NCBI RefSeq assembly: GCF_024521635.1
Contig: NW_026250404.1
Coordinates: 1,116,001-1,180,000 of the forward strand
Direction of reading: 5' to 3'
Origin: Tricharina praecox
Taxonomy: Eukaryota
DNA length: 64,000 nt
Made by a program: the position numbers and the translations under genes. The notes beneath the pieces are model-generated. The model made no database searches and was not told the DNA's origin. It was given only the letters and a program-made list of their open reading frames with translations. Below, one piece after another: positions 10,851 to 44,125 of this stretch. Position 1 is the first letter of the stretch, and each line of letters starts with the position of its first letter.

Positions 10851-11062
10851 CTCCCGTCGGTCTGCCTCTCTCAGCTGTTTTTCTTTCCTCACCAGCCTCA
10901 GCTTCTCCATCAATCTCTAATTCGTGTCCATCTTCTCATTCTTTAGAAGACAGCACAGTCACTCTTTGACCTCCTACTCTCATTATTTTCATAATCCACT
11001 GCTCTTTGCAACCACTCCCAATCACCCTCTATAATCTAACACCTCTCTCTACATAATTCAAA

Positions 11063-13759
11063 ATGCAGTTCCGAAAGGGTATTCAGATCGCCGCTCTCCT
11101 GTCGGCTCTCTCCCACATGGGAGCCGCCGCCCCGGCCCCGGCCGGCGGTGTCGAGGCCCGCGGTGATAACTACGGTTACACCGCTCCTACCCCCAACAAC
11201 GCCACATACACCTCCGCCGCTACCTACGGAGCTCCTACTCCCGTCGCCGGCTACCCCAAGGGCGAGGACTACGACCACACCAAGTACCCCAACGGCAAGC
11301 CGTCCGCAGGCTACCCCAAGGGCGAGGACTACGACCACGTCAAGTACCCCAACGGCAAGCCTTCCGCCGTCGACTACCCCAAGGGCGAGGACTACGACCA
11401 CGTCAAGTACCCCAACGGCAAGCCTTCTTCCGTCGACTACCCCAAGGGCGAGGACTACGACCACGTCAAGTACCCCAACGGCAAGCCTTCTTCCACCGGC
11501 TACCCCCACGGAAAGCCCACATATGTGAACGGCAAGCCTACCTACCCGGCTGCGGAGGACTGCGATGAGAACGGTGTCCCGTACTCGTCTTACCCTCACG
11601 GAAAGCCTTCCGGCAAGGGTTACCCCTCCAAGTTCGGCGGCAAGGGTGACTACCCGTCCAAGACTGGCTACCCGGCCAAGACCGGCACCGGCTACCCCTC
11701 CAAGACTCGCTACCCCGGCAAGAACCACGGAGACGACGAGTCTGACTCCGAGCACGGATCCGAGTACGAGTCCGAGGATGAAGGTCACGGACACGGCAGA
11801 AAGCCCACCGGACACGGACACGGATACAAGCCGTCCAAGCCCACCAAGCCGTCTTACCCCGTCGCTAAGCCCACCAAGCCCACCTACACCAAGCCTAACG
11901 GCCACGGATACCCCTCCAAGGGACACGGTGGTAAGGACTGGGAGTCCGAGGATGAGGACTACGTTCCCTACAAGCCTACCAGGCCTACCGGCAAGCCCAC
12001 CGGACACGGATACCCTTCCAAGGGACACGGCGGTAAGGATTGGGAGTCCGACGATGAGGACTACGTTCCCTCCAAGCCCACCTACAAGCCCACCAAGCCT
12101 GTCTACACCAAGCCCAGCGGACACGGATACCCTAAGGGACACGGCGGTAAGGACTGGGAGTCCGAGGATGAGTACACTCCCCGCAAGCCCACCGGCAAGC
12201 CCGTGAAGCCGTACAAGCCTTCGTACCCCACCAAGCAGCCCGTCAAGCCTACCTACAAGCCCACCAAGCCCACATACATTAAGCCTAGTGGACACGGATA
12301 CCCCTCCAAGGGTCACGGCGGCTGGGAGTCCGAGGATGAGTACACTCCCCGCAAGCCCACCGGCAAGCCCGTGAAGCCGTACAAGCCTTCGTACCCCACC
12401 AAGACCCCCTACAAGCCTACCAAGCCCACCTACGCCGTCGACACCCCGACCAAGAAGCCCCAGGGACACGGATACCCTTCCAAGGGACACGGTGGTAAGG
12501 ACTGGGAGTCCGATGACGAGGAGGAGACCTACCCCAAGGGTCACGGTGGAAAGGACCACGACGATTCCGAGTGGGAGTCTGACTCCGAGGACACCTACCC
12601 CAAGGGTGGAAAGCCCCACGGAGGATACCCGGCCAAGTCCACCGGCTACCCCTACGGACCCAAGGACACTGGTTACCCTTCCAAGTCCACCGGCTACCCC
12701 TACGGACCCAAGGACACTGGTTACCCTTCCAAGGGTACCGGCTACCCCCACGGAAAGCCCTCTGGAAAGCCCACCTACCCCAACGGCGGCAAGAACGTCG
12801 ATGAGGAGGATTGCGATGAGAACGGTGTCCCGTACTCGTCCTACCCTCACGGCAAGCCTTCCGGCAAGGGATACCCTTCCAAGGCCACCGGCTACCCTAA
12901 CGGACCCAAGGACACTGGTTACCCTTCCAAGGGCACCGGCTACCCTAACGGACCCAAGGACACTGGTTACCCTTCCAAGGGCACCGGCTACCCTAACGGA
13001 CCCAAGGACACTGGTTACCCTTCCAAGGGCACCGGCTACCCTAACGGACCCAAGGACACTGGTTACCCTTCCAAGGGCACCGGCTACCCTAACGGACCCA
13101 AGGACACTGGTTACCCTTCCAAGGGCACCGGCTACCCTAACGGACCCAAGGACACCGGTTACCCTTCCAAGGGCACCGGCTACCCTAACGGACCCAAGGA
13201 CACCGGTTACCCTTCCAAGTCGGTAGAGTACCCCAAGGATAAGGGCACTGGCTACCCCACCAAGTCCGTCGAGTACCCCGCTGGAGGCAAGGACACCTAC
13301 CCCAAGGACACTGCCTACCCTACCAAGTCGGCCGAGTACCCCAAGGATAAGGGCACCGGTTACCCCACCAAGTCCGTCGACTACCCCGCCGGAGGCAAGG
13401 ACACCTACCCCAAGGACACCGCCTACCCTACCAAGTCGGTTGAGTACCCCGCCGGAGGCAAGGACACCTACCCCAAGGATACCGCCTACCCCACCAAGTC
13501 CGTCGACTACCCCGTCGGAGGCAAGGACACCTACCCCAAGGATACCGCCTACCCCACCAAGTCCGTCGACTACCCCGTCGGAGGCAAGGACACCTACCCC
13601 AAGGATACCGCCTACCCCACCAAGTCTGTCGACTACCCCGTCGGAGGCAAGGACACCTACCCCAAGGCCACCCCCACTTCCACTTACCCCTCCAAGGGTG
13701 GTGAGGACGAGGAGGACTGCGATGAGGAGGAGGTGGTTCCTGTCAAGAAGACCTACTAG
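11063..13759 (+). CDS. Secreted 898-aa Tyr/Lys/Pro/Gly-rich tandem-repeat protein (putative cell-wall/adhesive structural protein)
   Basis: Intronless ORF with strong codon bias; signal peptide MQFRKGIQIAALLSALSHMGAA and pro-segment ending EAR; four repeat families; three EDCDE motifs; no hydrophobic GPI tail. Confidence 0.9.
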   Translation: MQFRKGIQIAALLSALSHMGAAAPAPAGGVEARGDNYGYTAPTPNNATYTSAATYGAPTPVAGYPKGEDYDHTKYPNGKPSAGYPKGEDYDHVKYPNGKPSAVDYPKGEDYDHVKYPNGKPSSVDYPKGEDYDHVKYPNGKPSSTGYPHGKPTYVNGKPTYPAAEDCDENGVPYSSYPHGKPSGKGYPSKFGGKGDYPSKTGYPAKTGTGYPSKTRYPGKNHGDDESDSEHGSEYESEDEGHGHGRKPTGHGHGYKPSKPTKPSYPVAKPTKPTYTKPNGHGYPSKGHGGKDWESEDEDYVPYKPTRPTGKPTGHGYPSKGHGGKDWESDDEDYVPSKPTYKPTKPVYTKPSGHGYPKGHGGKDWESEDEYTPRKPTGKPVKPYKPSYPTKQPVKPTYKPTKPTYIKPSGHGYPSKGHGGWESEDEYTPRKPTGKPVKPYKPSYPTKTPYKPTKPTYAVDTPTKKPQGHGYPSKGHGGKDWESDDEEETYPKGHGGKDHDDSEWESDSEDTYPKGGKPHGGYPAKSTGYPYGPKDTGYPSKSTGYPYGPKDTGYPSKGTGYPHGKPSGKPTYPNGGKNVDEEDCDENGVPYSSYPHGKPSGKGYPSKATGYPNGPKDTGYPSKGTGYPNGPKDTGYPSKGTGYPNGPKDTGYPSKGTGYPNGPKDTGYPSKGTGYPNGPKDTGYPSKGTGYPNGPKDTGYPSKGTGYPNGPKDTGYPSKSVEYPKDKGTGYPTKSVEYPAGGKDTYPKDTAYPTKSAEYPKDKGTGYPTKSVDYPAGGKDTYPKDTAYPTKSVEYPAGGKDTYPKDTAYPTKSVDYPVGGKDTYPKDTAYPTKSVDYPVGGKDTYPKDTAYPTKSVDYPVGGKDTYPKATPTSTYPSKGGEDEEDCDEEEVVPVKKTY
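11250..11500 (+). repeat. Coding tandem repeat A, YPKGEDYDHVKYPNGKPS x4 (60-63 bp)
   Basis: Near-identical units read directly in DNA and protein. Confidence 0.9.
12887..13219 (+). repeat. Coding minisatellite, 48-bp unit (TGYPNGPKDTGYPSKG) x7
   Basis: Almost perfect 48-bp tandem copies. Confidence 0.95.
13255..13670 (+). repeat. Coding minisatellite, 63-bp unit (DTYPKDTAYPTKSVDYPxGGK)
   Basis: 63-bp periodicity seen directly (e.g. 13501 vs 13564). Confidence 0.9.
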
Positions 13760-17279: not shown

Positions 17280-18889
17280 CTACAACAAGCTCCTCGTGAC
17301 ATGTTCCCTCCTCCTCTCCTTGTCCTTCGGCATCTCCCAATACTTTTTAAAATCCTTCTCAACATCATACCCCATCAACCACGGCGCAAACTCCGGATCC
17401 CTCCACGCGAGCACCTCTCCGGGCGGGGTAGGATTCATGCGGAGCTTCCTGTCCCTCTCGCACTGCTCCGCGCCGTCGGGGAGGTGGTAAAGATACTGCT
17501 GGACATTCCCGCGCTCGACGATACGCGCGACGCGAGCTCGCCGGCCGCGCTCATACACCGTCAGTGCGCGTTTCACCTCCGACCTGGACTTGATGCTCCC
17601 CAGGGCGAGCCCCAGGAACGCGCCGTCTTCGAGGGCCATACCCGCGCTTTTATCATCAGCTTGGAGTCTCTGCGCACACGTAGTGGGAGCGGTGGACTCA
17701 CCCAGCAGCCAAATACGGAAGCGCGGCGTGCACGGCGTCTCCCAGGAGCACGAAAGTCCCCGCGGGATTCGACCAGGCGGGTAGATCGTTTGGGCGGATG
17801 GAGAGCTTCCACTTGTGCACCTCCGTGCACAAGCCCAGCAGCTTGGGGATGCGCGCGTCCCAGTCCGCGTACAGCGCGCACATCTCGGCTACGTTTCCTG
17901 GGACTACGGTACTGCTGTCTGGAAGGTCGTCCGGCACCAAAAGGACCATGTTGAATTGTCGCCCGCCCCGGAGGACGTAGCTTACCGCATGTTTATCCGG
18001 GCCCTGGAGGTGTCAGTGGGGAGGTGTGCGGCGGGGAGGGGGGGGGGGGAGGGGGGAGGGGGGAGGGGCGCGCACAAGCCAGTACATAACCTGCGGATCC
18101 GTCACCATTCCCGCCAGCTCGGGATCCTTCAGCATCTCCCTCGCGTCCAGAAGGAGTCTATACGCCAGATCGCCCGTCTTCTTCGGCGGATCCTTATGCC
18201 CCACAAACGCCTCACGGGTCTTAGAATAAATCCCATCGGCGCCTACCACGAGGTCTGCGGTCACCCTCTCGCCGCCCTCCAGCACCACTGTCGTCTCCCC
18301 CCCGACAAACTCAAGCGTATCAACCCTCGCCTTACACCGCACCGTGGCACCCAGCTCCACCGCGCGCTCCAGCAAACACCGGTGCAGATTCGCGCGGTGG
18401 AAGTCCCAAAACGGGCTGCCGTACTTCTCAGCGGCCTCGGCGAAGCGCATGCTCGCCAGCGGCTCGCCGCGCCACGAGAGCATGTTTACGCACCGCGGCG
18501 TGGTCCAGTACGCTGATAGTGCGGGGGCAAGCCCCCAGCGCGTCAGAATCCGCGATGCGTTCGGGTGGATCTGGATGCCCGCGCCGATCTGAGATGGTTA
18601 GTTTTTAACCGAGTGATCGCCTGTGCGCCTGAGGGTGGGTGGGAGGCAAAATACCTCGCCGATTTCAGAGGCTGCCTCGAGTACCGTTACGTTGTGCCCG
18701 GCCAACGAGATGCCGATTGCGGCGCCGAGACCGCCGAGGCCTGCGCCGACTATTACTACCTACACATACCGAAGGATACTTGTCAGCCCGGGAGTCGGGA
18801 GTGGAGTCGGGGACGGAGGGGGAGGGGGTGGCAACATTCAGTTTACACCCGGCCGTGGGGTGGATGTATTCATGTGCCGCAGACTCCAT
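17280..18889 (-). CDS. hxnX: FAD-dependent monooxygenase, salicylate hydroxylase/6-hydroxynicotinate 3-monooxygenase type (HxnX-like); 4 introns; alternative start 18922
   Basis: Spliced reading gives VVIVGAGLGGL (Rossmann), IGAGIQ, VVGADGIYS (DG motif), LLGDAVHAALPYLAAG...GMALEDG (GD motif). The symbol rests on family plus cluster context. Confidence 0.8.
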
Positions 18890-19627
18890 ATTCGTTTTGT
18901 GGGTTGTGTTTTTATTGTTCATCGTATGATAAGGCGTGGAATCTCGTGGGGAACTGTCGAGCTCGAGTGGTCATGTAGATGGGTATCAACTTGTAGGCAG
19001 GCCACCGTTGCACCCCCATTATCCATATGCCCGCGGGGCCATTGAATCGGCACAGTATTGTTATGATTTCTACGGCGATCCTCCAGAATTTTTTGAATTC
19101 CATTATACGATCGCATTCGAGCTCCCGTTGCAGCGTGTCGGCCGTTGCACGTTGTCCTTCCGTGTCTCATAATTCTCATTCCAAGTGTAACAATGACGAC
19201 GCACGATGACATGGTCCAATACTCTACTCTACCTGTACCGTAATCCGATCCACTTGCCCCGTGCTCAAAACGTATGTAGAGTTTGTAGAGTTTGTACGCC
19301 TCCGGGGAACTTGGATGTCCCACCTGACAGTCGTGCTGCCCCTTGCCGATGCCACCCGCCCGCAGTACGCCAGCCACCTGCCTACCTACATCCCAGATTA
19401 CGATCGAGATTTGGGATTGCAGGACGACAAGACAAACGGTGGATGATCGGCGGCAAATGCCAATGTGCAGTGCAGTGCAGTGCAACCAGCGTGCCGTCAT
19501 GGATACCGCATGTACATATCACACAATACAATCTCAACGAGAGCATGTGGAGATTGCAACCATGACCTTCAGAGTGTGATGCATCCGGACCTACTACGAG
19601 ACACAACCGTCCTACCAGGCTACCAGG

Positions 19628-20502
19628 CTACCACCTTGTAACCCCGCCATCAACCAGCATGTCCTGCCCCGTCATGTACGAGCTCGCATCGCTCGCCAGG
19701 AACACGCACGCGCCGCGAATATCCTCTGGCTCCGCCACGCGCCCGTTCATGATCTCGTCCTTCCAGCTCTCGAGCAGGTGCGGGAACGGCGCCGTCATCT
19801 CCGTCCGCACGTAGCCGGGCGAGAGCGAGTTGATGCGGATGCCCTGGCATGGTGTTGTCAGTAAGATGTTGGTTATGGGGGGAGGGGGGGGGGATATACG
19901 TATTTGACCAGCTCGGCCGCAATCGGCGGGACCATAGTCCTGACCGCGCCCTTCGTCGCGCAGTAGGCGCTGCTCATCTGGCTCCTGATAGCCATATGGC
20001 TCGCAATACTTGCGACGCAGACGATGCTTCCCTTCTTCGTGCCGTTCTTGATCATCTGTTTCGCGGCCAGCTGGGCAGTGAAATACACGCCCTTCCCGTT
20101 GACATCCATCAGCCGCTCGAACTCCTCCTCCGTCGTGTCCACAAACGAAACGTTCTGGTTCACGCCTGCGCAGGGCACGCAGATGTCGAGCGCCCCCGAG
20201 AAGTCGGAGATGAATTGCGCGAAGCCAGCGGTGAGCGAGGACAAGGAGCTGACGTCCACCGTGTACCATGCTGTTCGCACGTTGTACGTTGAAGTGAGCG
20301 TGTGGAAGGCCGCCGACGGCGGGATGATGTCGAAGATTGCGATGGAACAGCCCGCTTCTGCCAGGCCTTCGGCGAAGGAGAGGCCGCAGCCCCGCGCGCC
20401 GCCGGTGATCAGGGCTACGCGGCCGGTGAGGTCGAACTGCGGCTGGTTAGCGGGTCTCTTGACGTGATTGCATGGATGGGGATTGTTTACTCTCTTGCTC
20501 AT
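19628..20502 (-). CDS. Short-chain dehydrogenase/reductase (polyol-dehydrogenase-like; occupies the HxnW role in the cluster); one intron ~19845-19900
   Basis: TGGARGCG cofactor motif, CAGV, ASIAS, YCATK catalytic motif, GIRINSLSPGY and SSYMTGQDMLVDGG C-terminus. Confidence 0.88.
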
Positions 20503-21024
20503 GTTGGTATCGATAAAACGTGGGTGGATTAGCTTGTGGTAGTGTGATGGAGCCAGGAGAGCTATGGGAGTCTAAATCTCGAGCTTATTTGAGCTTAACG
20601 GAAACTGCCGTCGTAAACGTCCACCCCTCACGACGATCATCTCCCGAGCCCCGCAACGGCGAGCTGCATATCCAGTTCTCCAAGCAGCTAAGGACTTATC
20701 TTTCGGAGTTACACGTCCGCGGAAGTTGATGCATGATATGCGGGTTGGCCATTTGCAGTTTATGCATTACTGGCCCTTCTCAGCTTGTGAAGGCCGTAGC
20801 AAAGCGGGGCAGCTCACAGTTATCGATAGCAACGGCCACCCATTCCTCCCACCCGTTGCTCCGATGCGGAGGGGGATAAAAGGGCCGGGCGCCGATCAAG
20901 ATTGATTGACGTTACATAGAGCACATCTGTTTCTCGATCCATCTGTTCCCAATCCCACTGCTCCAAATCTCATCTGCTCCACCACCTTACAATCTACCTA
21001 TCAAATTGGCCCATATTCTGAACA
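20503..21024. promoter_or_regulatory. Bidirectional promoter with HGATAR (GATA-factor/AreA-type) sites
   Basis: CGATAA 20511, TTATCT 20696, overlapping TTATCG/CGATAG 20820-20829, between the divergent SDR and hydrolase genes. Confidence 0.4.
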
Positions 21025-22250
21025 ATGGCCGAAGCAGCAGCTCCACCCAAGAAACGTACGCTTCCCAGCCTTCCTGGCCTCAGCCCCAACTGACTATCCA
21101 TTCGCACAGGCATCCTCTGCTCCTACGGCGTGGACATCGACGCCGTCGCTGGGTGGCTCGGCTCCTACGGCGGGGAGGACTCGCACTCTGACATTTCCCG
21201 AGGTGAGCACGCCCATTGCCCCTCACCCATTGCCCTGTATACATACAGAGCCCAAGTTACTGACGACTGCAGGAATGTTCGCCGGCACCGTCGGCACGCG
21301 CCGCATGCTCAAGCTGTTCGAAAAGTACAACATCAAGGCGACGTGGTTCATCCCGGGGCACTCGCTCGAGACGTTTCCCGAGGAGTGCGCCATGGTGCGG
21401 GACGCGGGGCATGAAATGTACCCTCCCCCTCCCCCTCTCCCTCAATTCTAGCTTAGACGACTAACGCCCTCGCAGCGGCCTCCACGGCTACTCTCACGAA
21501 AACCCCGTGGACATGACATGGGAGCAGCAGCGGGACGTGTTAGACAAGTCCTACCGGCTTCTGACGGAATTCTGCGGGAAGCCACCACGTGGGAATGTCG
21601 TTCCGTGGTGGGAGTGCAACGAGGAGGGCACGGAGCTGCTGCTCAGCTACGGCATCGAGTATGATCACTCCATGAGCCACCATGATTGCCAGGCATACTA
21701 CCTGCGCAAGGGCGATAGTTGGACGAAAATTGATTATCAGAAGAAGGCGGAGGACTGGATGAAGCCACTCGTTAAGGGACAGGAGACGGGATTGGTGGAG
21801 ATTCCGGGGAGTTGGTATATCGACGGTAAGTGCCGCGAGCGGTGGGGGCGTGGGGGCGTGCTGATGTGTGGTGTGCTGGTAGATCTCCCGCCGATGATGT
21901 TCATCAAGAACAACGCGAACTCGCACGGGTGGGTGAACCCGCGGGACATCGAAGACATCTGGCGGGACCACTTCGACTACTTCTACCGGGAGCACAAAGA
22001 CGAGGGGTTCATCTTTCCGATCACGGTGCACCCGGACGTCAGCGGGAGGCCGCACGTCCTGCTGATGCACGAGCGCCTCATCGAGTACATCAACTCCCAT
22101 GAGGGCGTCGAGTGGGTCACCATGGAGGAGATCTGCGATGACTTCAAGAGCAGGAATCCGTACCCCGAGGGCGCGCTGAAGCCGAGTCCGCCAGGTGAGG
22201 CGATGAGGGTCAGGCCGGAGTTGGGGGTTAAGGTGGGTGGTAGCGTGTAG
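21025..22250 (+). CDS. hxnM: Polysaccharide-deacetylase (NodB/CE4) family hydrolase, cyclic-imide hydrolase type (HxnM-like); 4 introns
   Basis: Spliced protein [35 protein letters not shown]...[16 protein letters not shown]...[10 protein letters not shown]...YDHS...DDLPPMMF...[21 protein letters not shown]; no signal peptide. Confidence 0.85.
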
Positions 22251-22358
22251 TGGGGTAGGGCTGTGGAGTTGTACATATGTTTACGCGGCTTGAGATGTAT
22301 ATATACGAGCGACGAGATTATCGTTATGGTTAAGAACGTCTGCTTGCTTCTATTATGG

Positions 22359-23389
22359 CTAGGCCTGGGTTTCACGAATGATCCCTTCGATAATCTTCAT
22401 GCCCGCAAGCGTCTTCTCTTCCTTAAACTTGCGCTCGATAACCTGCAGTCCCACCGAATGGCCCTTCATAGTCAGCGGATCATCTGTATACTGTCAGTTT
22501 CACTCGTGCGCCGGTAGAGGTCCACTTCCAGCGCCGCCCTCATCGCGGTGACCAGCGCGCCCACCGTCCGCGCCATGGGCCCGGCGGTGCGGGAACGTGC
22601 TCCTGCCCCCGCGTGCTGACGGCGGTGCCCGCGTACGACAGGCGCGCACTGCACGGCTCAAACCCGGCGATCCCCATGATCGCGCTCGGGATCCGGATGC
22701 TCCGCCGATGTCGCTGCCGCCGCTCAAGCCGCCGGGCGTGAACGCTCTGTTCCGCGGGTCCGTCGTGAGCCCGAAGAGTGGCGACGAGGTTTCGCACCAC
22801 AGCAGGCTCCGCGGCACGGTGGTCTTGCTGAGGCGAGCACGATCGCGCCGAGCGAGGCGAGGACGGTGATGAGCGCGGACTGTGAGGTCACCAGCTGCGC
22901 GCACAGCGACGTGTACTATAAGTTATCGTCGTGTCCAGCCCGCGCACGTTGAACTGGTCCTTAACGGTGATCGGTCGGCCGTGCAGCGGGCCCGCGGGTC
23001 GCGAGGTATGCGTCGAGCGCCGTGGAGAAGTTCGGCTCTGTCAGGGCTCCGTAAGGACGACGCAGTGCTGGTGGACCACGGTCGCGCTCCTCGCGGAGTT
23101 TAGCGGGGCTCGTTCACTTCACTTCACTTCACGGCAGGGATACGCGGGCGGGTGCACGTCGTGATGTATATAGCCCTCCACCGCGTGCCGTCGCGTAATC
23201 GATGTCGTCCGCGTTGTGGATGGCGGTTTCGAGCAGGTCGCGACACGTCCGTCTGAGTGCCTGGCGGCCGCTGCGACGGGGGTAGATGCTATACTGCGTA
23301 CGCCGCGAGCTTGCGCGCAATCCCGTGCTGTTTCCGGCGTACGACGTCGCGCCAGTTCGGCGAATGGCGGGGGGCGCACTGGCGCTCAT
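22359..23389 (-). pseudogene. hxnN: Amidase-signature family pseudogene (HxnN-like)
   Basis: Minus-strand fragments in shifting frames: GPLHGRPITVKDQFNVRGLDTT, KTTVPRSLLWCETSSPLFGLTTDPRNRAFTPGGLSGG/SDIGG, SIRIPSAIMG...GQEHVP, GPMAR, and C-terminal MKGHSVGLQVIERKFKEEKTLA...TAG. Multiple frameshifts and internal deletions; only ~1 kb long. Confidence 0.85.
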
Positions 23390-24324
23390 GGTGCGGCTGA
23401 GGCCGAGTTGCGTGTCTGTTCGGTGAGCGAGGGATTCGGGGTGTTGCGATTCTCTCTCTGGGTCTGGCGAGCGGGGAGCGTGGCGAGCCACGGAGATAAG
23501 CATGCGTCGACAGCCTGCGCGCCGTGGTGTGGCCACTCTGCCTGCCTGCGCGACGCATGTGTTGCAGTCTTGCAGATGTCGGTCGTGCGTCGTGGGCGCT
23601 GGATGTGCGGCTCTCCTGTCCGATCGATAGTGGGAATGCTGAGGTGGGAGCATCCCACGGCCGTGGATCCTGACGAGCTTTCACTGGTTGCTGGTACGGT
23701 GGTCTAGGGTAGCAGGTAGAGTAGAGTAGAGACCTGGAGCATGAGCGTTTGGACTGGCCATGGCTTCTGCACGTCCAGCCATCCACTCCCACGGAAGCGA
23801 GTTCTTCAAGCCCATGATGCCACTTTTGCTGCTGTATGTACGGTATATAACTGCACTCTACATGCCATTCTGCAAATAACCAGTCGAGTCCCGGATGGGC
23901 ATGGCGGATAGATAGCTACCCCAGCTTCGGTGTTCCAGAAAATCAGCAGTCCGGCCGTGGCCAGTGGCCAGCAGAGTAAAGTAAGCAACGAACGACAGGG
24001 CCGGGCCTCTGCTCGGCCTACTTACTCTGCCTACTCTACGGCCCCTCCATCCCATCATGGCCACATCTAGAAAGAGGATATCGACCCAGAATCGCGCCAC
24101 AACAGCTGATTTTTTGGAAACAGAATTGTCACGCAACTTTGAACGCCCCGTCCCCCCTCCCATAGAAATAGAGCAGCATGTAACCCGCCATGCGCTCCCT
24201 TCCACTGAACGGAAGAACGAGAAGGAAAACCGGAAAGCCAAATATCCCGAGACGAATCCAGACCTGCACACCCGAGCCATCACCCGCACCCGCACCCACA
24301 CCCGCCCGCGCCACTACTCCCCAC

Positions 24325-26598
24325 ATGAGCGATCATCGCGAGCAGCCCCTCGAGAGCCACGAAGATCATCTGCAGGCTGCACGGGAAGTTACATCGAGCA
24401 TAGCAGTGCGCCCCAACGGAACGGCTAGAGCAGCAGCAGCTTCAGCTTCCCCCAGCGCCAAAAATATAACCACAGCGCTGTCCCCGAGCTCGCCCTCGAT
24501 GAAGAGACCAGCTTCGGAAATGACGCCTGGCTCGAGCACTGAGTATCCGACCCGCCCAAACCCGCCCACGCGTATCCGTCCCGACGTCGACACCGATGTC
24601 CAAGAAGTCGACGTGCTCGTCGTGGGCGCCGGGCCGGCCGGTTGCATGCTGGCGTAAGTCGATCCATCCATCACGTGTGGCGTGCTCTCCCTCTTCTCAG
24701 CGTGCCCCCCACTACCTCCAGCTCGCTGATTTGGCTTCTCTCCCGCTGCAGAACCCAACTCGCACGCTTCGGCATCAAGACCAAGATCATCGATGAGCGG
24801 CCAGACCGGACGCCGACGGGGCGCGCAGACGGGCTGCAGCCCAAGACGATCGAGACGTTCAAGCAGATGCGGATAGCGGAGCCGGTGCTGCGGAAGGGCG
24901 TCAAGATATTCGACATAGCGTTCTGGAACTCGAGTGCGGGCCAGCGATTGCGGCGGACTGGCCGGCAGGAGCATTTTCCGCCGCTCGTCGACGTGCTCGA
25001 GCCGTTCATACTCCTGGTACATCAGGGCATGGTCGAGAGTCTGTTTTTGGATGATATGAAGGAGCGTGGATTGGAGGTAGAGAGGAACTGCGTTTTTGAG
25101 ACGTGCACGGTTAAGGAGGATGAAGCGTATCCCGTCGAGGCGGTCTATAAGGATAAGGTCAAGAATACGACGAAGAGGGTGAGGGCAAAGTACATCGTTG
25201 GCTGCGATGGCGCGCATAGCTTGGTGAGGAAGTGTATGCCCGGCGTCGCGATGGAGGGCGAGACGACAGATGTGTTCTGGGGAGTCCTAGATGGCGTCGT
25301 GGAAACGGATTTCCCAGATCTGTGGAGCAAGTGGTATGTGGTTCCTCTTTTACGCACCGGTACTGGACGCTTACCACCGAAAGCAGTGCCATCTCCTCGC
25401 ACGAGGCCGGGACGATCCTCTGCATTCCTCGCGAGAAGAACATGACACGCCTCTACATTGAGCTCAATACCGTCGGCGAAACCGGTAATGGTAAGATCTC
25501 GAAGGCGATCGCCAAGGACTTTGTGATACAGCGGGCCAAAGCCATTCTGAAGCCCTACACCATCAATTGGACGTCGATAGAATGGTTTGGCGTCTACCAG
25601 ATCGGCCAGAGGGTGTCGACATCATTCTCTCACAAGAACCGGATCTTCATCGCCGGCGACGCAGGGCATACTCACTCCCCGAAAGCCGCACAGGGAATGA
25701 ACGTGTCCATGCACGACACCTACAATCGTGCGTATCCCCCATCTTCAGTAAACTTGTGCACACATTGATTCTCGCAGTCTCGTGGAAGCTCGCGCACGTC
25801 CTCCACGGCCTAGCCAAGCCCGCCATCCTCGACACGTACGCCGAGGAGCGGCGCAAGATCGCATGCGATCTGATCCGCTTCGACCACGAGCACGCCAAAG
25901 CCTTCATCAAGAACGACAGCAAAGCGCTCGCAGAGAACTTCAAGACGAACATCCGGTTCATCAGCGGGGTCGGGGCCGTGTACGGTCCCAACTCCCTCAA
26001 CCTCCCATCCTGGACGAGCACCAAGCTCGTTCCCGGCGAGCTCCTTGTCCCCGCACGCGCGGTCCGCTACGTCGACGCCAATCCTGTCGATCTGCAGCTG
26101 GACATACCAGTGCTGGGCCAGTGGCGCCTCTACTTCCTCGCCAAGGACTACCAGGCGAGCAAGTACTTTCTCGACACGATGGCAGAGTTCATCACCAGCC
26201 CACTCTCGATTCTCGGACGGGCATCGGAGAAGTCGCGGGGCGCGCCCACGCCCGCCCGCGCAGAGGCCGACGATATCGTCCAGCCCCAGCGCTATACTAC
26301 CACTGGACGACTGTTCACCCCCGCGCTGATCACGCGCACCCCGCAGGCGGAACTGGAGCTCGCCGACCTCTGCCCCATGATGAAGGATGCCCGCTGGACT
26401 GTCTACCTCGACCGCCTCGAGGGAAGGACTAGTCCGTTCAAGAAGTGGGTTGGCGGCGAGGTGCGAGAGGGCGAGACCGTGCTCGCCGTCGTCCGCCCCG
26501 ACGGCTACGTCGGCGCTATTGGGAAGTGGGTGCCAGAAGGAGTCGAACAGGCCGCCGCTTGGGTGGAGGCGTATTTTGGGGGGTTTTTGCAGGGGTAA
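24325..26598 (+). CDS. hxnV: Phenol 2-monooxygenase-like FAD hydroxylase (HxnV-like); 3 introns; alternative start 24190
   Basis: [42 protein letters not shown]...[30 protein letters not shown], and C-terminal VVRPDGYVG dimerisation domain. Confidence 0.85.
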
Positions 26599-28555
26599 AG
26601 GGGGTGGTGGGTGGTATAGCGCGCGGATCTGGGGTTGCATATGGCGTTACTTTGTTTGTTGGTGTATTTCATAGCTGGTTTAATGTGCACATTATCTAGA
26701 GGTTGGCTTATGCCGAATATGTTGAGTAGGACGGGCGATCGTTCGCTGTGCTGGCGGATGGCGGACAGAGTGAGAGTGGGAGGGTTACACAGTTGCACGA
26801 GTGATTCGAGAAATGGGTCCTTGCGGCGAGGGATCGGGTTGATTGATGATTACTGATTCATTTACTCGGGATTCTATCTCTCCGCGAGTAGGGATCTACA
26901 ATCGTACCGTGCAGCTGCTGGTATAACGGCTGGATTATGTACCCGAAACCCGAGACCCGGGAGTTGATACGACCAGTTCTCTAGACGGGTGGGTACACGA
27001 AATATCACTCGCTTTTGCGTTCGCCATCAACTTTTGAGTTCTCGGATGCAGAGGTAGCTAGGTTTTGAGTTTACTGTCTGTCTGTTTGTTTGATTTCATT
27101 CCGTACATAGGAAATTCTGGACGAAGAACAACAAGCAACAAGGGAAAAGTATGTACTGCATCGGGCCGGGCACCGGCGTTTGTGGACTTGGACGGACACG
27201 GTCCAGTACCCAATCAGCCATGATCTCTACTTCCTACTAGTAGTACCAATGCCGGATGCTACGATGATTAAACCCAAAATCTATAAAATAACAATAATCC
27301 GGGAGTCCGGGAGAGGCTACATTCATACAAGAAGTACTCGGGGATCGTGTGTAGGCAGCCGGTTTCTGCGAAACCACATGATGCGACCCTCGGCCGGCTG
27401 CCAGTTGCCAGTTGCCAACTGCCAGCAATGACAAATGTCTCGGTTAGTATTCAGCCCTAGTACGAGGGCGACGACTGTGTACCTAGCGGGCACGCATACG
27501 TCGCATAGGTAGCCTATGCAACTCCCCACACTCGCCACGTCGACGGTCGACCTCCCCTCCTCAAGCCTCGAGTCTCGAGTCTCGACAAACCACGGCTCGG
27601 TACCTACTGGTACTCTGCTGATATGTACTGGTACCAACCGGGTAGGCCCCACCCAATCCGGCGCGGCGCGGGTAGTAGCGGCAGGGCGCGGGCTTGTGTA
27701 GCGTATATATCCATCCCTATGCCGCCTTATCGAAGGACTGGCGAGATGCAATTGGCTTGCCATGCAGGATGGGTGCGATGCAGGATGGGTGCGATACCAA
27801 TTGCGGGCTGAAGATCGCGATCGACTTGTGGGTACGAGGCGTCGGAGGAGGAGAGTTTCTATTCGGGCTGCTGGGGGTCGCTTCGCAAGCTAGCCGAGAG
27901 CTGAGGGCTGAGGGCTGAGGGCTGAGGGTAGGGGCGATCCGATCCATCAAGACTTGGGTATTGACTCGAGTCAATGTTGATTTACATGCATACTCGGCCG
28001 GCTCTGAATGACCGTATGGGTGGTGGATGACGGCCATGCAACGCAGCGAGTGTGAAGCATGGCCAGGGAATTGCGATAAATACAGAGGATGCCGGAGAGC
28101 CTTTGTTGGGGCCTTTGGGCGGCCTGGAAAAGTGCCACAATCATGCTGTTCCACGCATCGTCTCAAAACTGGGCACAGAGATGTCGCCAACTACCGTACG
28201 GGGAGAAGGGGGAAAGGAAGGGGAAAGCGACACACCTACTCCGGTAAAGGAGTGAATCTTTCCTCATGGTGGGATGTTGCAGATTTTCCGAGTCTGTTCG
28301 TAGACGGCGAACTTGCCTCCGACACTCGAGCTGTAGGCAACGGTGTAACTAGGCCATTGGATTCGGGCACTCTCGTGTCACCACCCAGTTCCCAGCTTGC
28401 CAGCTTGCCAGCTTGCAGCACCTTGCTTAGCGTCAAGGTGATCAACACTGCACTGATATACATACGAGAGGATGTCCGTCGTCCGCCTCCGCTGCTCCTG
28501 TGGATATACATCCTGAGCCACAAGCTACAGCTCCTCCGAGCTTTCAATATTCACA

Positions 28556-31500
28556 ATGGCCACCGCAAAACTATCCCTCCCCACGCCGCTCCCCTCCTCC
28601 ACCAGCACGGCCACGGCCCTCTCACCTGCAGAAGCCCTCAACCCACTCGTACACTCCATCTTCACGACCTCGACGATCTCCTTCTTCCTCAATGGCGAGC
28701 AGCAGACCCTGCACAACATCGACCCGTCGGCGACCCTACTCGAGTACATCCGCAGCCACCGCGGGCTAAAGGGCACGAAACTCGGCTGCGGCGAGGGCGG
28801 GTGCGGCGCCTGCACCGTCGTGGTGCAGCAGGCGGACTCGCGGGGGCGGGTCGAGTGCCGGGCGATCAATGCGTGTCTCGCACCCATAGTTTCCGGTACG
28901 TAGTATTCCTGCTCTGCCCTGCCACTGCAAGACTGCAACCAAGCTGAGACCTCCCGCAGTGGATGGGAAACACCTCCTAACGATCGAGGCGCTGGGCACG
29001 GTGGACGCACCGCACCCGCTGCAGCAGCGCATTGCGGCACTGCACGCAAGCCAGTGCGGCTTCTGCACGCCCGGGATCATCATGTCGCTCTATGCGCTGC
29101 TGAGGAACGCGTATGATCCGCACAGGAAGGTGTTTCGCCTGGCTCGACGCATGGTTGAGGTTGAGGGCGCGCTTGACGGGAATCTGTGTCGCTGCACTGG
29201 GTATAAGCCCATCTTTGAGGTCGCTAGGAGCTTTGTCACGGAGGATTTGGGGGGCGTGTTGATGGATGAGGGGGAGGAAGAGGGGGTGGAAGAGGGGGAG
29301 GGGGCGGAGGGGCTGGGCGGGAACTGGACCGTGGATGCCGGGAAGGCGAAGGGTGTGAGTTGTGGTAGGCCCGGTGGGTGCTGTCGTGACTCCCCCAGCA
29401 GTAGTGAGAGTGGACAGTACGAGAGCTCGGACGGGGAAACGGCATCGGCGAGCACAAACTCTTCCACGCCACCTCCGGCGGAGGAGGAGCAAAAGAGCAA
29501 TGGTCAATCCACTCAGCCGGGCTTCAAAGAGTACTCGCCTGGCAGCGAGATAATCTTCCCCTTCAGTTTACGGAAATACGAGTTCAAACCACTCTGTTTC
29601 GGAAACGAGAGGAAGGTCTGGTTTCGGCCGGTCACGCTGGAGCAGGTGTTGATGATCAAGGATGCGTTTCCCTCTGCGAAGCTCGTCGGCGGGAGTTCCG
29701 AGGTCCAGGTCGAGGTCAAGTTCAAGAACTCGGAGTATGCGGTTTGCGTCTATGTCGGCGATGTGCCGGAGCTGAAGGGATTCGCTGTGGACGAGGCAAA
29801 GGGGGAAGCTGTCATTGGGGGCAATGAAATTCTCAGTCTGGTCGAGGGGGAGTGTTTGAAGTGGGGCAAGAAACTGGGGCCTCGCGGACTCGGACTGGAG
29901 GCGATCAGGAAGCAGCTGAGATATTTCGCTGGGCGCCAGGTTTGTTTTCCCCACGTAACGACATGGTGATTCAGCTCATGGAATGATGGGAATAGATCAG
30001 AAATGCCTCGACTACGGCTGGGAACATTGCCACCGCCTCGCCGATTTCCGATCTCAACCCGGTATTCGTTTGTGCTGGAGCAAGGCTGATCGCGCACTCG
30101 CTCTCAAAAGGGCCGCAAGAGCTGGATATGCGCAAGTTCTTCCTTGCGTACAGGACTACTGCGCTTCCTGCCGACGCGGTGATAACGAAGATCATTGTGC
30201 CACTTGGACATGCCAGCGGACGCGAGATCATCAAGGCGTATAAACAGGCGAAGCGGAAAGATGATGATATCGCTATTGTCACGGCAGGTCTTCGGGTGAG
30301 GCTTGGTGAGGACGGTTGTGTGGAGGACGTCTGTCTGGCTTATGGAGGGTATGTTTGCCAATTTCCCCCTAGGATGTGGGTTCTGATAAGTTTAGAATGG
30401 CCCCGACGACCGTCGAGGCGAGGAATACTCAAGAGGTGCTCATGGGGAAGAAGTGGTTTGAGCCTGCCGTACTGGAGGAAGCTATGGGTGCAATGGAGAA
30501 AGTGAGTTTTCACATAATATCACTCGCTTGCGGATTCGCACTGACAAACAGGATTTCAATCTCTCTTACTCTGTTCCCGGCGGTATGCCAACTTACCGCA
30601 AGACTGTTGCTTTCTCCTTCTTATTCCGGTTCTGGCACGAGGTTGCAGCAGAGCTGAAGATTGCCGAAGTCGACCGCTCCCTCGTCTCGGGCCTCGACCG
30701 ACATGTTTTCCTCAGTGGGACCCGAGATCATGACAACCCCTACGAGCAGGAAGTAGTGGGAAAGCAGATTCCACACGTGTCCGGCTTGAAGCAAGCAACA
30801 GGACAAGCGGAGTTTATCGACGACATGCCCAAAATGGACGCTGAGGTCTTTGGTGCATTCGTCATGTCATCGAAGGCACATGCCAAGTTGATCGAAGTCG
30901 ACTTCTCTCCCGCCCTGGAATCGCCAGGTGTTGTCGGGTTCGTCGATCATCACGACCTATCCGAAGACCGCATGCTGTGGGGAACCGTGGTGAAAGACGA
31001 GCGCTTCTTTGCAAAAGACATTGTGCGCTGCCATGGCGATATCATCGGAATGGTCCTGGCAGAATCCGCGGCGCAGGCGCAGACGGCGGCGAAGCTGGTT
31101 AGGATCGTGTACGAAGAGCTGCCCGCTATCATCTCCATCGATGAGGCCATCGCTGCTGGATCATACTTTGAGTCCTACAAGAGTATGCTGAAGACTGGAA
31201 AGCCAATTGAGGAAGCCCTGGCAAAATGTGACCACGTTATTTCGGGCGTCTCGAAGATGGGGGGACAAGAGCACTTCTACCTGGAAACCAACGCGGCGCT
31301 AGCCATTCCCAAGGAGCACGGTGAAATGGAGGTATGGTCGAGTACGCAGAACACCATGGAGACACAGGAGATGGTCTCGCAGGTTACTGGAATCCCGGCA
31401 AACCGCATTGTCGTCCGGGTGAAACGATTGGGCGGTGGCTTTGGCGGAAAGGAGGCGCGCTGTATGCCAATTTCGTGTATTCTTGCAGTTGCGGCCAAAA

Positions 31501-33086
31501 AGCTGGGACGTCCCTGCAGAGGCATGTTGAACCGTGATGAGGACATGCTCACTACGGGACAGCGACACCCATTCCAGGCGCACTGGAGAGTGGGCTTCAG
31601 TAAGGATGGCATGCTGCAGGCGCTCGATGCCGATGTTTACGACAATGCTGGGCATTCGCTCGATCTCAGCGGTGCTGTGATGGATCGTTGCCTCACGCAT
31701 ATCGAGAATGCATACTGGATTCCTAATGTGCATGTTCGTGGCCATGTCTGTAGGACCAATACGCACAGCAACACTGCGTTCCGAGGTTTTGGCGGGCCAC
31801 AAGGAAATTATATCGCCGAATGCATCATGACTACTATCGCCGACAAGTTGGGCATCGATGTCGACGCACTCCGATTCAGGAATCTCTACAAGGAGGGCCA
31901 GAAAACCCCGTTCCTGCAGACTTTAGTGGACTGGCATGTCCCCGAGATGATGGAAGAGCTGCAGGAGGCGTGTGCACTCGACGAGCGGAAGAAGGAGGTT
32001 GCCGAATACAATAGCGCGAACAAGTACAAGAAACGTGGCATCTCGATGGTACCCACGAAGTTTGGTATCTCGTTTGCGACTGCTTGTCACCTCAATCAGG
32101 CCGGTGCCCTGATCCACATCTACACCGATGGCTCGGTACTCCTTGCGCACGGCGGAAACGAGATGGGACAGGGCCTCTGGACCAAGATGATTGCCGTCGC
32201 AGCGCAAGAGCTTCAGGTCCCTTTCGAATCCGTCTTCACCGCGGACTCGTCTTCCAACACTGTCGCCAACGCCTCGCCGACTGCCGCCTCCTCGGGCTCC
32301 GACCTCAACGGCATGGCGATAAAGCACGCCTGCGATCAACTCAACGGGCGCTTAATTCCCTACCGTAAAAAGTATGGCAACGACATGAAAGCGATCGCCA
32401 GCGCCGCCTTCGTCGACCGCGTCAACCTCTCGGCCAACGGATTCTACAAGATGCCGGACGTGGGCTACAAATGGGGCAACCACATCGACCCGCTCCCACT
32501 GTACTTCTACTTCACGCAGGGCGTAGCCTGCACCGAAGTCGAGCTCGACGTCCTCACCGGCGACCACTTCGTCCGACGCACGGACATCATCATGGATGTC
32601 GGCCGCAGCATCAACCCGGCCATCGACTACGGCCAGATCGAGGGCGCGTTCGTGCAGGGAATGGGCTTGTTCACGACCGAGGAGACGCTGTGGACCGCGC
32701 GCGATGGGAAACTGTTCACCACCGGCCCGGGGACATACAAGATCCCTGGCTTCGCGGATATCCCGAAGGAGTTCAATGTGCGCCTCCTCAAGAAACCGAA
32801 GAGCCAGTGGAAGAATCTCCGCAGTATCCAGAGCAGCAAGGGTATCGGTGAACCCCCGCTGTTTCTGGGCGCGACGGTACTGTTCGCCCTCAGGGAGGCG
32901 GTTAAGGCCGCTAGGGAAGAGGTGGGCGGGAAAATGCAGGAGACGCTCGTGTTGGATAGTCCGGCGACTTGCGAGCGGATTAGGGGCGCGATTGGTGGTG
33001 ACGTGTGGGAGCGGATGAGGGTCAAGAAGGAAGGGAGGCCGTTTTTCGTTTGCGCACAGGGGGAGACGCTGGGGTTGGCTTTGTGA
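28556..33086 (+). CDS. hxnS: Xanthine dehydrogenase-family molybdo-flavoenzyme, HxnS (nicotinate hydroxylase/purine hydroxylase II) type; 4 introns (~28896, ~29939, ~30349, ~30502)
   Basis: GTKLGCGEGGCGACTV and QCGFCTPG/GNLCRCTGY 2Fe-2S motifs; FAD domain; Moco domain GGGFGGKE, TAFRGFGGPQG, KGIGEPPL; GISFATACH (extra Ala vs canonical FTAL) and an insertion before GNLCRC. Confidence 0.9.
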
Positions 33087-33940
33087 GGTGTTTGGTAGGA
33101 GGCATACAGGCAAATGGGGTTTTCAAGTTGTTGGTTGGTTGGTTGGTTGAAAATGGGGGGGGGTTTTTTTTTGTTTCTTCGTTACTTGCATGTAGCCCAT
33201 TCACTCTAGACATTGGCCGGACCGGTCGAACTTGAATGGAGCTCTGTCAACTACTTCAGGTTCACAACCACAGAGTGATCGTGAGTGATCCAACCTTGCG
33301 AAACATCCGGTTTGCTCGTAACTAGTCCGACACTATTTGCCGTCACCAGTAATATCTTGACCTACTACATGACTTTCCAAGCGTCCCTCCAGAAGAAAAA
33401 AACCTGCACTTAGAAATAATTGATGCAGGCAGCGAAAGCCTGAACGATCCTCGATGTTGTCTGCCACCACTACCGATGAGAGATAGATGATCAGATAAGA
33501 TAGGAGGAGGAGGGACTAGCCGGATCGGTGGATCTGGACGTTGTATGCAGATGGCTCTTCGAAGTTGAATAGAACCTCAACTTCTCCATATCCGTTTCTC
33601 TTCCAGGGCCACATACTTACGTCACTCGAGCGTAATCGGTCCATCACTCCACTCCTCACAGGAGCCAAATACGGTAAACCTGTGAACCCGAAGATCTTTC
33701 ATCATCCCGCCTCTATGTGCCTATGCCGATCACCGATCACCGACGGCAAAACTTAAAATAAAAAAACTTGTGTAAAAGCTGGGGAAGTTCTGGAAGATTC
33801 GCGCATCATCTATGATCTCACACTAGCTGGAGGCTAGCAGTTCAGCGAGCCGAATATCTATGAATAATGCTGCTTCCTTTTTCCATTCCGATCGATACGG
33901 GACGAATCTAGAGTATGTTACCTGACGTCAGGCGGGCAAA

Positions 33941-34024
33941 AATAAGAAGAAGAAAAGAAGAAAAGAAGAAGAAAAGAAGAAAAGAAGAAAAGAAGAAGAA
34001 AAGAAGAAAAGAAGAAGAAAAGAA
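33941..34024. repeat. A/G-rich simple repeat (AAGAAGAAAAG-type)
   Basis: Seen directly. Confidence 0.85.
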
Positions 34025-34621
34025 GTTGAGGTGTGGCGTGGAATGGCGGCGGCGGTGGTACGGCAGGCAGGTCATGATGCGATGAGGATCCCTTGATGGG
34101 GTGGACGGTGCCCTCTAGGTTCGACATCACGTTTCAACCGCTTGCTGGTCTCGACTGCTCGGGAGGAGTCCTTGGGGCGGGGATACCAGTACATTGGAGC
34201 CAGTGAAGATTTTGTACCATGCTCTACATACGGTGAATCACAAATCATCACTCCGTTGTCTAGCTGATCAGTTGCATCGATAACTAAAGATTGGATGTTA
34301 CTCGGCCGCCATGGGTTTTATAGAGGAAGTTCGAGCATTATCAATCGAGAAACCCCCCTGGATGTTACTTGGAGAGCTGCGGAAGGCGTGTCGAGGGTGC
34401 TGAAGATATTTCCTCTGGCTACTTACTTAGGCATCGTGAATGGATATATGTACTTTAAATACGTGGAGAAAAGAGATCATAGGAACATAGCGAACGTGAA
34501 GGGCCGACATCATTACATTAGGTATATAGTCCCCACCCTTCGACCGACCCGGAACCATCAGAGCGTGCACAACGACTATCCTACACTCCTCCCCGCCCCC
34601 CTCCCTCCCCCGTTCCCCGCA

Positions 34622-35032
34622 TCACAAGACCCAATCACACCTCACCCCCCTCATCGCGCCAGTAGGATTACTCGCGAGCCAAATAGCGTCCTCGACGCAA
34701 TACGCGGCGATGAGCGTCGACGTAGTGAACGTTGCAACGCCCTTATCGCCACTATCGCCATTATCACCCTTGTCGCCGGCGTAGTCGAATCCCCAGCCGT
34801 CGATCTGCCCGCACCGGTCATGCAGGTTGTTCAGCAGCCCGCTGCCAAAGTCCCGACCCCATGGCCCAAATGTCTCCACGGAGAACTTCCATGTGATTGT
34901 GTCTTGTTGAGTGCGCTTGCAGATGGCAAGGTTGCCGGAGCGGGGGGATTGTGTGGGGTCGGAGGGGGCGGCGGGGGCGAGTGAGAATATGGTGGTGGTG
35001 GCGGCGGCGGAGACGAGGGGGAGGAGCTTCAT
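34622..35032 (-). CDS. Small secreted protein, 136 aa, 4 Cys
   Basis: MKLLPLVSAAATTTIFSLAPA signal-like start; WGRDFGSGLLNNLHDRCG...W.F.Y...CVEDAI...C pattern recalls a family of small fungal secreted proteins. Confidence 0.7.
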   Translation of the reverse strand: MKLLPLVSAAATTTIFSLAPAAPSDPTQSPRSGNLAICKRTQQDTITWKFSVETFGPWGRDFGSGLLNNLHDRCGQIDGWGFDYAGDKGDNGDSGDKGVATFTTSTLIAAYCVEDAIWLASNPTGAMRGVRCDWVL

Positions 35033-42712: not shown

Positions 42713-44125
42713 TCAAACATCCAAGTTCACCAGACCGGCGCGAACAGCCTCCACAAAGTCCGCCTCGCCAATGGCGCTCCACTCTCCCTTCTTTCCACCG
42801 CCGTATAGGCCGGTGTATCCGTACGGGCCCTTGACGCTGGGCACCTCCATGGGGCGCCACTGGTTGTCGGAGGCGAGCTTGGGTGCGATGTAGCTTCCGT
42901 GCACGAGGCGTGACTTGGCCTCGAACAGGTACGGGCCGACGGCGATCTCGATATCTAGGTTGTCCGAGTTCTTCTTCTCGAGGAGCGTGCGTGCCGAGTC
43001 GAGGAGCGCAGTGATGTTGTCGGCGCGGTTGTCGCCCTCGCCGCGGATGCCGTGGCTGCCGACGCGCACCCGCACGGTCTCCTTCCAGTCCACGCCGGGG
43101 TTGGAGAAGAGCTCGGGGCAGACGGACGGGACGGTGATGGCCAGGTCCGAGAGGCGCGGGCACGAGGCGAGAAGGTTGCAGATGTGGCGGTTGTCCTCCG
43201 GGGTCTGGACGGGCTCGAAGCCGTCCTTGGCGAGCGGGATGAATTCCAGGAGCTTGAGGGTCTCGCGGGATGCGGACACGAGCGCGGAAACACCCTTGGC
43301 GGTGATGCTGGTGACGTTCGTGATCAAGATCTCCTCGAGGTTGGTGGCGGTGCGCGCCATGAAGAACAGGTCTTCGTCGCTGATGGGCTTCAGGTTCGAG
43401 TCGCCAAAGATCTTCAGTCGGCGAAGCTTGCTGAAGTCGAGGCTGGGGGTCTTGCCAAGCACCTCGGTGTCGCGGTGGCTCTCGGGGAACTCACAGACCT
43501 CATTCTTGAGACCGACAGCGAGGAACTCGAGCGAGGTCAATCGGGGGAACGAGAGAACGTTATTCCAATCCGCCGAGTCGCCATATCGCAGCGCAGTCCA
43601 GGGGATTGTCACGGTGCGCACGTTGCGGCAGTTCTGGAGGATCTGGAAGACATAGCCGACGGTATCGAAGCGATAGATTCCATTGAACCAGATCTTGCGG
43701 ACGTGGCGAGCGAGCTGCGGGTAGTCACCAAACAGCTTGGCGGTGGACTTGACCGACTTGTAGGGGTTCTGGTAGACGACGGGCAGGATCTCGACGGGAA
43801 GCGCGTTCTCGAATGCTCGGCGCATCCAGGTTTCTCCTCCCTGCCATCGGCGGATGTACAGCTCCCGCAGCGCGTGGGACAGCGCCCACTCGTGCCACTG
43901 TGCGCTCACTTGTCGGATCGCGTCCACGGAGTGCCATCGCTGCACGTCGGTCGGTACTCGGCCTCGAAGATATTTCTGGATGTACGCCTTGTTCTGCATG
44001 GGGCGGGGGGCTTGAGTGAGGCCATAGGTGTAAGTGACAGCATTAAGATCGTTGGCATTTAGCTTTGCGGCAATCGAGAGGATCTCCGAGACGAGCTCGA
44101 AGGGGAGGTCTTGAAAAGACGGCAT
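42713..44125 (-). CDS. F-box/leucine-rich-repeat protein (470 aa)
   Basis: MPSFQDLPFELVSEIL F-box-like start; LRR-like units (LTSLEF, LRRLKIFG, LEEILITNVTSITAKGVSALV, LKLLEF, LSDLAI); strong codon bias; intronless. Confidence 0.85.
   Translation of the reverse strand: MPSFQDLPFELVSEILSIAAKLNANDLNAVTYTYGLTQAPRPMQNKAYIQKYLRGRVPTDVQRWHSVDAIRQVSAQWHEWALSHALRELYIRRWQGGETWMRRAFENALPVEILPVVYQNPYKSVKSTAKLFGDYPQLARHVRKIWFNGIYRFDTVGYVFQILQNCRNVRTVTIPWTALRYGDSADWNNVLSFPRLTSLEFLAVGLKNEVCEFPESHRDTEVLGKTPSLDFSKLRRLKIFGDSNLKPISDEDLFFMARTATNLEEILITNVTSITAKGVSALVSASRETLKLLEFIPLAKDGFEPVQTPEDNRHICNLLASCPRLSDLAITVPSVCPELFSNPGVDWKETVRVRVGSHGIRGEGDNRADNITALLDSARTLLEKKNSDNLDIEIAVGPYLFEAKSRLVHGSYIAPKLASDNQWRPMEVPSVKGPYGYTGLYGGGKKGEWSAIGEADFVEAVRAGLVNLDV

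Follow-up and report, generated by a model that had tools for sequence, protein, structure and literature searches.

A reduced nicotinate catabolic (hxn) gene block in Tricharina praecox, with a broken amidase gene and no hxnR regulator found

The 64,000-nucleotide stretch analyzed here (the window; G000:C17:1116001-1180000 of the Tricharina praecox assembly, 38.4 Mb in 104 contigs) carries a compact block of genes related to the nicotinate catabolic (hxn) regulon of Aspergillus nidulans. The reading we favor, with some reserve, is that of a vertically inherited hxn cluster that has been reduced by secondary loss and that still works, under constitutive or general-nitrogen (AreA type) control. 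T. praecox is a Pezizomycete recorded growing on post-fire soils only (PMC10455484). Gene models were built by reading both strands and placing GT-AG introns by prediction, which yielded five intact genes containing 17 introns in total and, as a sixth unit, an amidase relic:

18889-17280, minus strand: hxnX, 446 aa, 4 introns, 6-hydroxynicotinate 3-monooxygenase type
20502-19628, minus strand: hxnW, 254 aa, 2 introns, short-chain dehydrogenase
20503..21024, no strand: hxnW-hxnM divergent promoter region, 522 bp, a conserved couple
21025..22250, plus strand: hxnM, 328 aa, 4 introns, CE4-type cyclic imide hydrolase
22359..23389, minus strand: hxnN pseudogene, start at 23389 and end at ~22359, amidase pieces in three frames
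23390..24519, no strand: hxnN-hxnV divergent intergenic region, a conserved couple
24520..26598, plus strand: hxnV, 625 aa, 3 introns, phenol-hydroxylase-type 2,5-dihydroxypyridine monooxygenase
26599..28555, no strand: hxnV-hxnS gap, the position of hxnR in Choiromyces/Tuber-type loci
28556..33086, plus strand: hxnS, 1437 aa, 4 introns, molybdenum nicotinate hydroxylase (purine hydroxylase II) type

A preliminary description of this DNA had listed six adjacent genes by family and strand, and all six were found in place. Pfam agrees, with FAD_binding_3 in hxnX, adh_short/adh_short_C2 in hxnW, FAD_binding_3 and Phe_hydrox_dim in hxnV, seven XDH domains in hxnS, Amidase in two frames of the relic, and a weak match to Polysacc_deac_1 in hxnM (E 9e-5). 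The predicted introns are skipped in contigs from two sequencing runs of two studies, all 15 of the 15 joints among those listed matching the models, and depth is 131-1865 in bins over the cluster genes as opposed to 2-8 in two flanking stretches. Because introns are skipped and depth differs in this way between genes and flanks, the two runs fit RNA, with transcripts of hxnX, hxnW, hxnM, hxnV and hxnS. A 9-kb contig spanning X-W-M-V was rejected as a sign of a single transcript, and contig depth was left out of any ranking between genes. Two metatranscriptome runs from soil, both belonging to one study, also contain short spliced pieces of hxnS.

The identity of hxnS is central, and a grouping of the window XDH with HxA had been named in advance as a result that would overturn the nicotinate reading. 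That comparison was run, and the window protein came out as HxnS-type. The residues that distinguish HxnS from HxA are set out in section 2.2 of PMC5746545, and their equivalences to bovine numbering were taken here from motif context. The substrate motif reads FATAC-H in the window protein (an Ala insertion plus the His) compared with FTALF in the paralogue on contig C50; the equivalent of bovine His954 is Pro (KTPF) as opposed to THF in HxA; that of Phe417, before AYKQ, is Ile where HxA has Tyr; and that of 1081-1082 is Ser-Gly (ASSGSD), a motif not recovered from the C50 copy. Relative to mammalian XDH, the second 2Fe-2S domain carries a 9-residue insertion and the linker measures ~93 residues instead of 34. 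A separate canonical HxA lies at G000:C50:643243-647429. Assignment of the window XDH as HxA is ruled out by the diagnostic residues together with this distinct gene, and the window protein is, judged by these residues, a HxnS-type nicotinate hydroxylase. The model is identical to the public T. praecox protein P0001. The change from Leu to Cys in the FATAL-H motif is common to the window HxnS and that of Sphaerosporella brunnea, and both this Cys (FATAx-H) and an Asn in HGGxE are rare (2/120 each). Elsewhere, in the Choiromyces/Tuber-type loci L032, L042 and L057, the DNA downstream of hxnS holds repeated 3' fragments of that gene alternating with copies of an unrelated one, and at least four HxnS-like proteins are present in Choiromyces.

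Comparison with A. nidulans was made by proxy through fungal contigs: a pattern built on the HxnS motif matched 56 metagenome loci, 39 of them distinct after merging at 97%, and the 12 distinct loci that are full-length were used for the counts of linked hxnR and hxnT. Cluster genes adjoin hxnS in unrelated fungal contigs too, at 45-87% identity to the window copies, and because the same neighbors recur there the grouping of the six genes is not due to chance. HxnW, 64-77% identical to cluster copies, equals A. nidulans HxnW in length, has TG(X)3GXG at positions 15-22, and was the best of 29 own-genome matches (62-73%, with 42% or less for the others); a match to W in L031, at 28%, was excluded as a paralogue. 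HxnM is 73-81% identical to cluster copies and was the sole match in its own-genome search. HxnV reaches 45-51% to cluster copies, the published orthology range being 40-45%. HxnX is 48-56% identical to hxnS-linked copies, keeps the His-x3-Tyr substrate pair, and has homologues near S or R by locus tag in Morchella, Hypoxylon, Aspergillus felis and others. With a protein named 6-hydroxynicotinate 3-monooxygenase as query, the window hxnX was the top own-genome match by identity (52-63% per exon), although the best-scoring single row was an unbroken 41% match on contig C28. The public hxnX model, P0259, has its start codon 11 codons further upstream, at 18922. The HxnX C-terminus is SLL, a non-canonical tripeptide resembling a type 1 peroxisomal targeting signal that is shared with S. 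brunnea; a canonical tripeptide occurs in 29 of 120 homologues, and a special loss of peroxisomal targeting is not supported, SLL lying inside the family range (PMC13705651).

For W, M, V and X, then, identities lie at or above published ranges and are accompanied by synteny with other hxn genes. The orthology of S, X, V, W, M and N to the A. nidulans genes, as first proposed, is borne out by identities to hxnS-linked copies, by synteny, by the HxnS residues and by own-genome best matches for W, M and X (the last by identity). Selection was gauged against a close relative represented by locus L051, which is 83% identical to the window in S and 87% in V. The ratio of nonsynonymous to synonymous substitution rates (dN/dS) is 0.09-0.16 for hxnS and 0.04-0.07 for hxnV, so that all six exons tested fall between 0.04 and 0.16, within purifying selection.

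The relic proposed on the minus strand between hxnM and hxnV is a true pseudogene. Both ends of hxnN are recognizable, but the gene carries several frameshifts, one in-frame stop and a deletion of ~250 central codons; its four best pieces are 49-72% identical to cluster amidases, and its N-terminal part is open in L051 (60% DNA identity). Pseudogene status follows because the RNA contigs carry the same broken DNA, letter for letter and without joints (X1 over the whole relic, X2 from 22595), which also rules out an assembly error or cryptic introns.

The arrangement of the block was originally put forward as a surprise, since the A. nidulans genes are split over three loci, and as possibly assembled independently. 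Neither idea is supported. A one-cluster hxn of all 11 genes is in print for Cyphellophora europaea and Hymenoscyphus repandus (PMC8478523, sections 2.1-2.3), and the Aspergillus split is derived. The same paper states that, outside Aspergillus, the Pezizomycotina have hxnM and hxnN within the cluster, and it reports the divergent couples N-V and M-W as conserved (section 2.3); co-location of hxn genes is likewise noted in PMC7842363. The window carries both couples. W-M is divergent in all three distinct loci holding both genes, and N-V in three of four. Because these are the conserved couples, independent assembly is unsupported: the block was inherited, and it is A. nidulans, with its three loci, that departs from the rule. 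In S. brunnea the X and S proteins are four accession numbers apart on equal-sized contigs, and for this reason that species probably shares the compact block. The N-V intergenic region retains two blocks that are 75-76% conserved in L051, where a reverse transcriptase / RNase H element (L051:17130-19300) lies between them.

The first description also remarked on the absence of hxnR, hxnT and hxnY from the window. This was borne out, and no orthologue was found in the whole assembly. No hxnR-, hxnT-, hxnY- or hxnZ-like sequence was found in the 84 kb formed by the window and 10 kb on each side. In the V-S gap an HxnR profile gave no match while its controls were positive, and a remnant of hxnR there or in the flanks was rejected. 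Genome-wide, four HxnR queries (two of them Pezizomycete) recovered other C2H2/fungal transcription factor (TF) genes but matched distant paralogues only. The two closest own C2H2 proteins, on contigs C17 and C15, are 27-31% identical to HxnRs, whereas Choiromyces HxnR is 46-59% identical to 14 other HxnRs; they fall outside the HxnR clade (support 95/90, with a long-branch warning on the tree), and both were rejected as a displaced hxnR on identity and tree, subject to that caveat. A Choiromyces-type HxnR exon searched against proteins had no Tricharina or Sphaerosporella entry in the best 120 of 141 matches, a weak result, as Morchella was missed too. For hxnT, the best own old yellow enzyme (OYE), on contig C44, lies outside the HxnT clade in a quick tree of 87 rows (SH-aLRT, an approximate likelihood ratio test, 99) and was rejected as hxnT, and for hxnY the best own dioxygenase is 35-40% identical, compared with 54-89% between cluster copies (a criterion of identity only). 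No cluster-resident HxnP was identified among the loci fetched around hxnS.

Linkage in other fungi gives these absences a direction. Of the 12 full-length loci, 11 have hxnR no more than 10 kb from the hxnS motif, the exception being L051, and hxnR stands directly upstream of hxnS in L023, L026, L032/L042, L036 and L057. Tuber, Choiromyces and Morchella also have the two genes linked (PMC5746545, Table S4), and hxnR is common to Saccharomycotina and Pezizomycotina (PMC8478523). Since hxnR is shared with yeasts and hxnS-linked in these Pezizomycetes, its absence in T. praecox is best read as a secondary loss and not as the ancestral, enzyme-only state that had been suggested. Such losses are on record, 14 of 139 species being hxnS-only, Sarcoscypha coccinea among them (PMC5746545). 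As for hxnT, it is absent from the three Pezizomycete-type loci among those 12 and present in the other nine, and Pezizomycetes are not among the taxa named in the HxnT tree legend of the preprint 10.1101/2021.04.19.440407, as far as its available text goes. Genes of other kinds can also intervene in hxn clusters: a histidine phosphatase gene (L059:2602-4379) separates hxnY from hxnR in one, and a SET-domain gene (L027:16316-17312) separates hxnT from hxnR in another.

If the retained enzymes act as their A. nidulans orthologues do, HxnS would convert nicotinate to 6-hydroxynicotinate, HxnX would decarboxylate and hydroxylate this to 2,5-dihydroxypyridine, and HxnV would add the third hydroxyl. 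Ring reduction could then be carried out by an unlinked OYE in place of HxnT, followed by presumed piperidinone oxidation by HxnW and ring opening by HxnM. Together S, X, V, W and M would lead from nicotinate to alpha-hydroxyglutaramate (the pathway of PMC9304392), from which an unlinked amidase may release ammonium in place of the dead hxnN. The two steps without a cluster gene here, ring reduction and amide hydrolysis, are those at which PMC9304392 postulates a second, redundant enzyme, UE1 beside HxnT and UE2 beside HxnN, and deletions of hxnY, hxnP and hxnZ merely diminish growth in A. nidulans (PMC9304392); the regulator aside, the lost genes are those with leaky deletions there. Candidate substitutes in the genome are the OYE at C44 and amidases at C26 and C28. 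Without HxnR, expression would most probably be constitutive or under an AreA-type nitrogen regulator, and not metabolite-induced. The W-M promoter region contains five HGATAR motifs in 522 bp (two of which overlap), against 1.9 per kb in the window.

Several points weigh against this proposal. The chemistry, the substitutes and the regulation are inferred; GATA enrichment occurs in one of the four intergenic regions, W-M; and the recent decay of hxnN may mean that the cluster as a whole is being lost. The absences come from one draft assembly of 104 contigs, through a search that scored only first-look candidates, and the HxnR tree carries long-branch warnings. Finally, hxnZ may be among two unlinked SV2-type transporter genes whose products match a single cluster HxnZ at 26-59% identity per segment.

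Another possibility, which we hold to be an unlikely but not negligible one, is that the cluster is still inducible, its control taken over by or shared with the unlinked HxnR-like factor at G000:C17:~1375700-1378500, ~227 kb away on the same contig. This gene has three central introns and carries the 132-nt exon that is diagnostic of HxnR and HxnR-like genes in Pezizomycetes, and the base-contacting residues of its two zinc-finger helices are, by what we take to be the right positions, the same as in HxnR. However, its ligand-binding region shares only 28-31% identity with HxnR, and HxnR-type GHGGGG sites stand at background in the intergenic DNA (14 in 4347 bp, 3.2 per kb, versus 2.9 per kb in the window). 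Moreover, the HxnR-like gene is class-wide and never clustered (S6 legend, 10.1101/2021.04.19.440407), and because such genes are found also in Pezizomycetes without hxn genes they serve another function. We retain constitutive or AreA-type control as the better account.

Char is rich in nitrogen heterocycles. The main task of the enzymes could now be detoxification or scavenging of other pyridine-type compounds, for example those derived from char or from the turnover of tryptophan or quinolinate; release of nitrogen would then be dispensable, which would account for the loss of hxnN. We think this improbable. The broken gene is indeed the ammonium-releasing step, the post-fire records of the species and the spliced hxnS pieces in soil metatranscriptomes suit the idea, the A. 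terreus cluster is salicylate-responsive (PMC7842363), and HxnS carries the two rare residues noted above. Yet every diagnostic substrate residue checked is of the nicotinate-enzyme type, and hxnN is partly redundant in A. nidulans. Nor does this look like a general fire trait, because the fire fungus Pyronema omphalodes, with one XDH locus listed, is not among the hxnS species in the portions of the record available. A third account, in which hxnR (with hxnT, hxnY and hxnP) sits in an assembly gap or was missed and the regulon is ordinary but split, draws on the draft state of the assembly, the filtered own-genome search and the frequency of unlinked hxnR in Sordariomycetes (PMC5746545, Table S4), and is very unlikely, as the HxnR queries recovered many C2H2/fungal-TF genes yet distant paralogues only, L051 also has no hxnR near hxnS, and Sarcoscypha coccinea is coded hxnS-only.

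Other features surround the block. Just downstream of hxnS, a small secreted-looking protein is encoded at 34622-35030 (minus strand), with RNA-contig coverage and no Pfam match, and an A-rich pentanucleotide microsatellite occupies 33936-34028. A frame of 900 codons at 11057-13759 (plus strand) begins with what resembles a signal peptide, contains long repeats of Lys/Pro/Tyr/Gly and probably encodes a secreted wall or matrix protein; a Pfam scan, of its antisense frame only, gave no match. A ~470-aa frame at 42713-44233 (minus strand) has no Pfam match, and its N-terminus is F-box-like. Transposase_21 frames at 54045-57484 (plus strand) mark a DNA transposon, which we take to be Tnp2 of the CACTA type, and further unannotated frames lie at 50794-53215. 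Elsewhere in the genome, match pairs with identical scores near contig ends (G000:C31:2045-4364 / C43:154390-156709 and C30:10299 / C37:198323) are possibly assembly duplicates.

In A. nidulans, loss of hxnR leaves the pathway non-inducible and unusable, and a transcribed, selected cluster without hxnR raises the question of what drives its expression. The steps that the cluster retains are those for which no back-up enzyme is known, a match relevant to the argument that links clustering to toxic intermediates, and T. praecox is a species in which the reductase and the amidase so far named only as UE1 and UE2 could be sought. More speculatively, and with little confidence, the cluster in Tricharina and its close relatives may have outlived its own factor, been pared to the steps that have no back-up, come under constitutive control or control by nitrogen state or an HxnR-like factor, and been put to use on the pyridine-type nitrogen of burnt soil. 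If so, it would be a natural experiment on why clusters persist after co-regulation by their own factor ends. We found no paper on an hxn cluster in Tricharina, although the Figure S5B map of PMC8478523, which includes Pezizomycetes such as Sarcoscypha, Plectania and Gyromitra, may already show this form; a term search of the available text of PMC12773724 gave no hxn, nicotin or pyridine passage, and neither it nor PMC9418001 gave a passage on nitrogen heterocycles in char.

The cluster descends from hxn and probably works like it, yet HxnR, which defines the regulon in A. nidulans, was not found with it, and nor were orthologues of HxnT and HxnY. The likeness to that regulon lies in the orthologues of HxnS, HxnX, HxnV, HxnW, HxnM and HxnN, in the HxnS residues and in the separate HxA. 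In contrast to A. nidulans, T. praecox has one block where the former has three, no hxnR, hxnT or hxnY was found, hxnN is broken, W pairs with M and not with X, and HxnX ends in SLL and not SRL. A closer likeness is to the clusters of C. europaea and H. repandus and to loci L040/L044, L012/L035 and L016/L034, in which X, W, M, N, V and S are contiguous with W-M and N-V divergent; these keep hxnR and hxnT, whereas in T. praecox S follows V head to tail with no gene between. The loci of Tuber, Choiromyces, Morchella and Sarcoscypha coccinea belong to the same class and likewise have no hxnT adjoining hxnS, but the first three keep an hxnS-linked hxnR that T. praecox does not, Sarcoscypha coccinea being hxnS-only in the published coding. 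With the one-block layout already in print, the reduced, regulator-less form described here is a modest variant of a known pathway.

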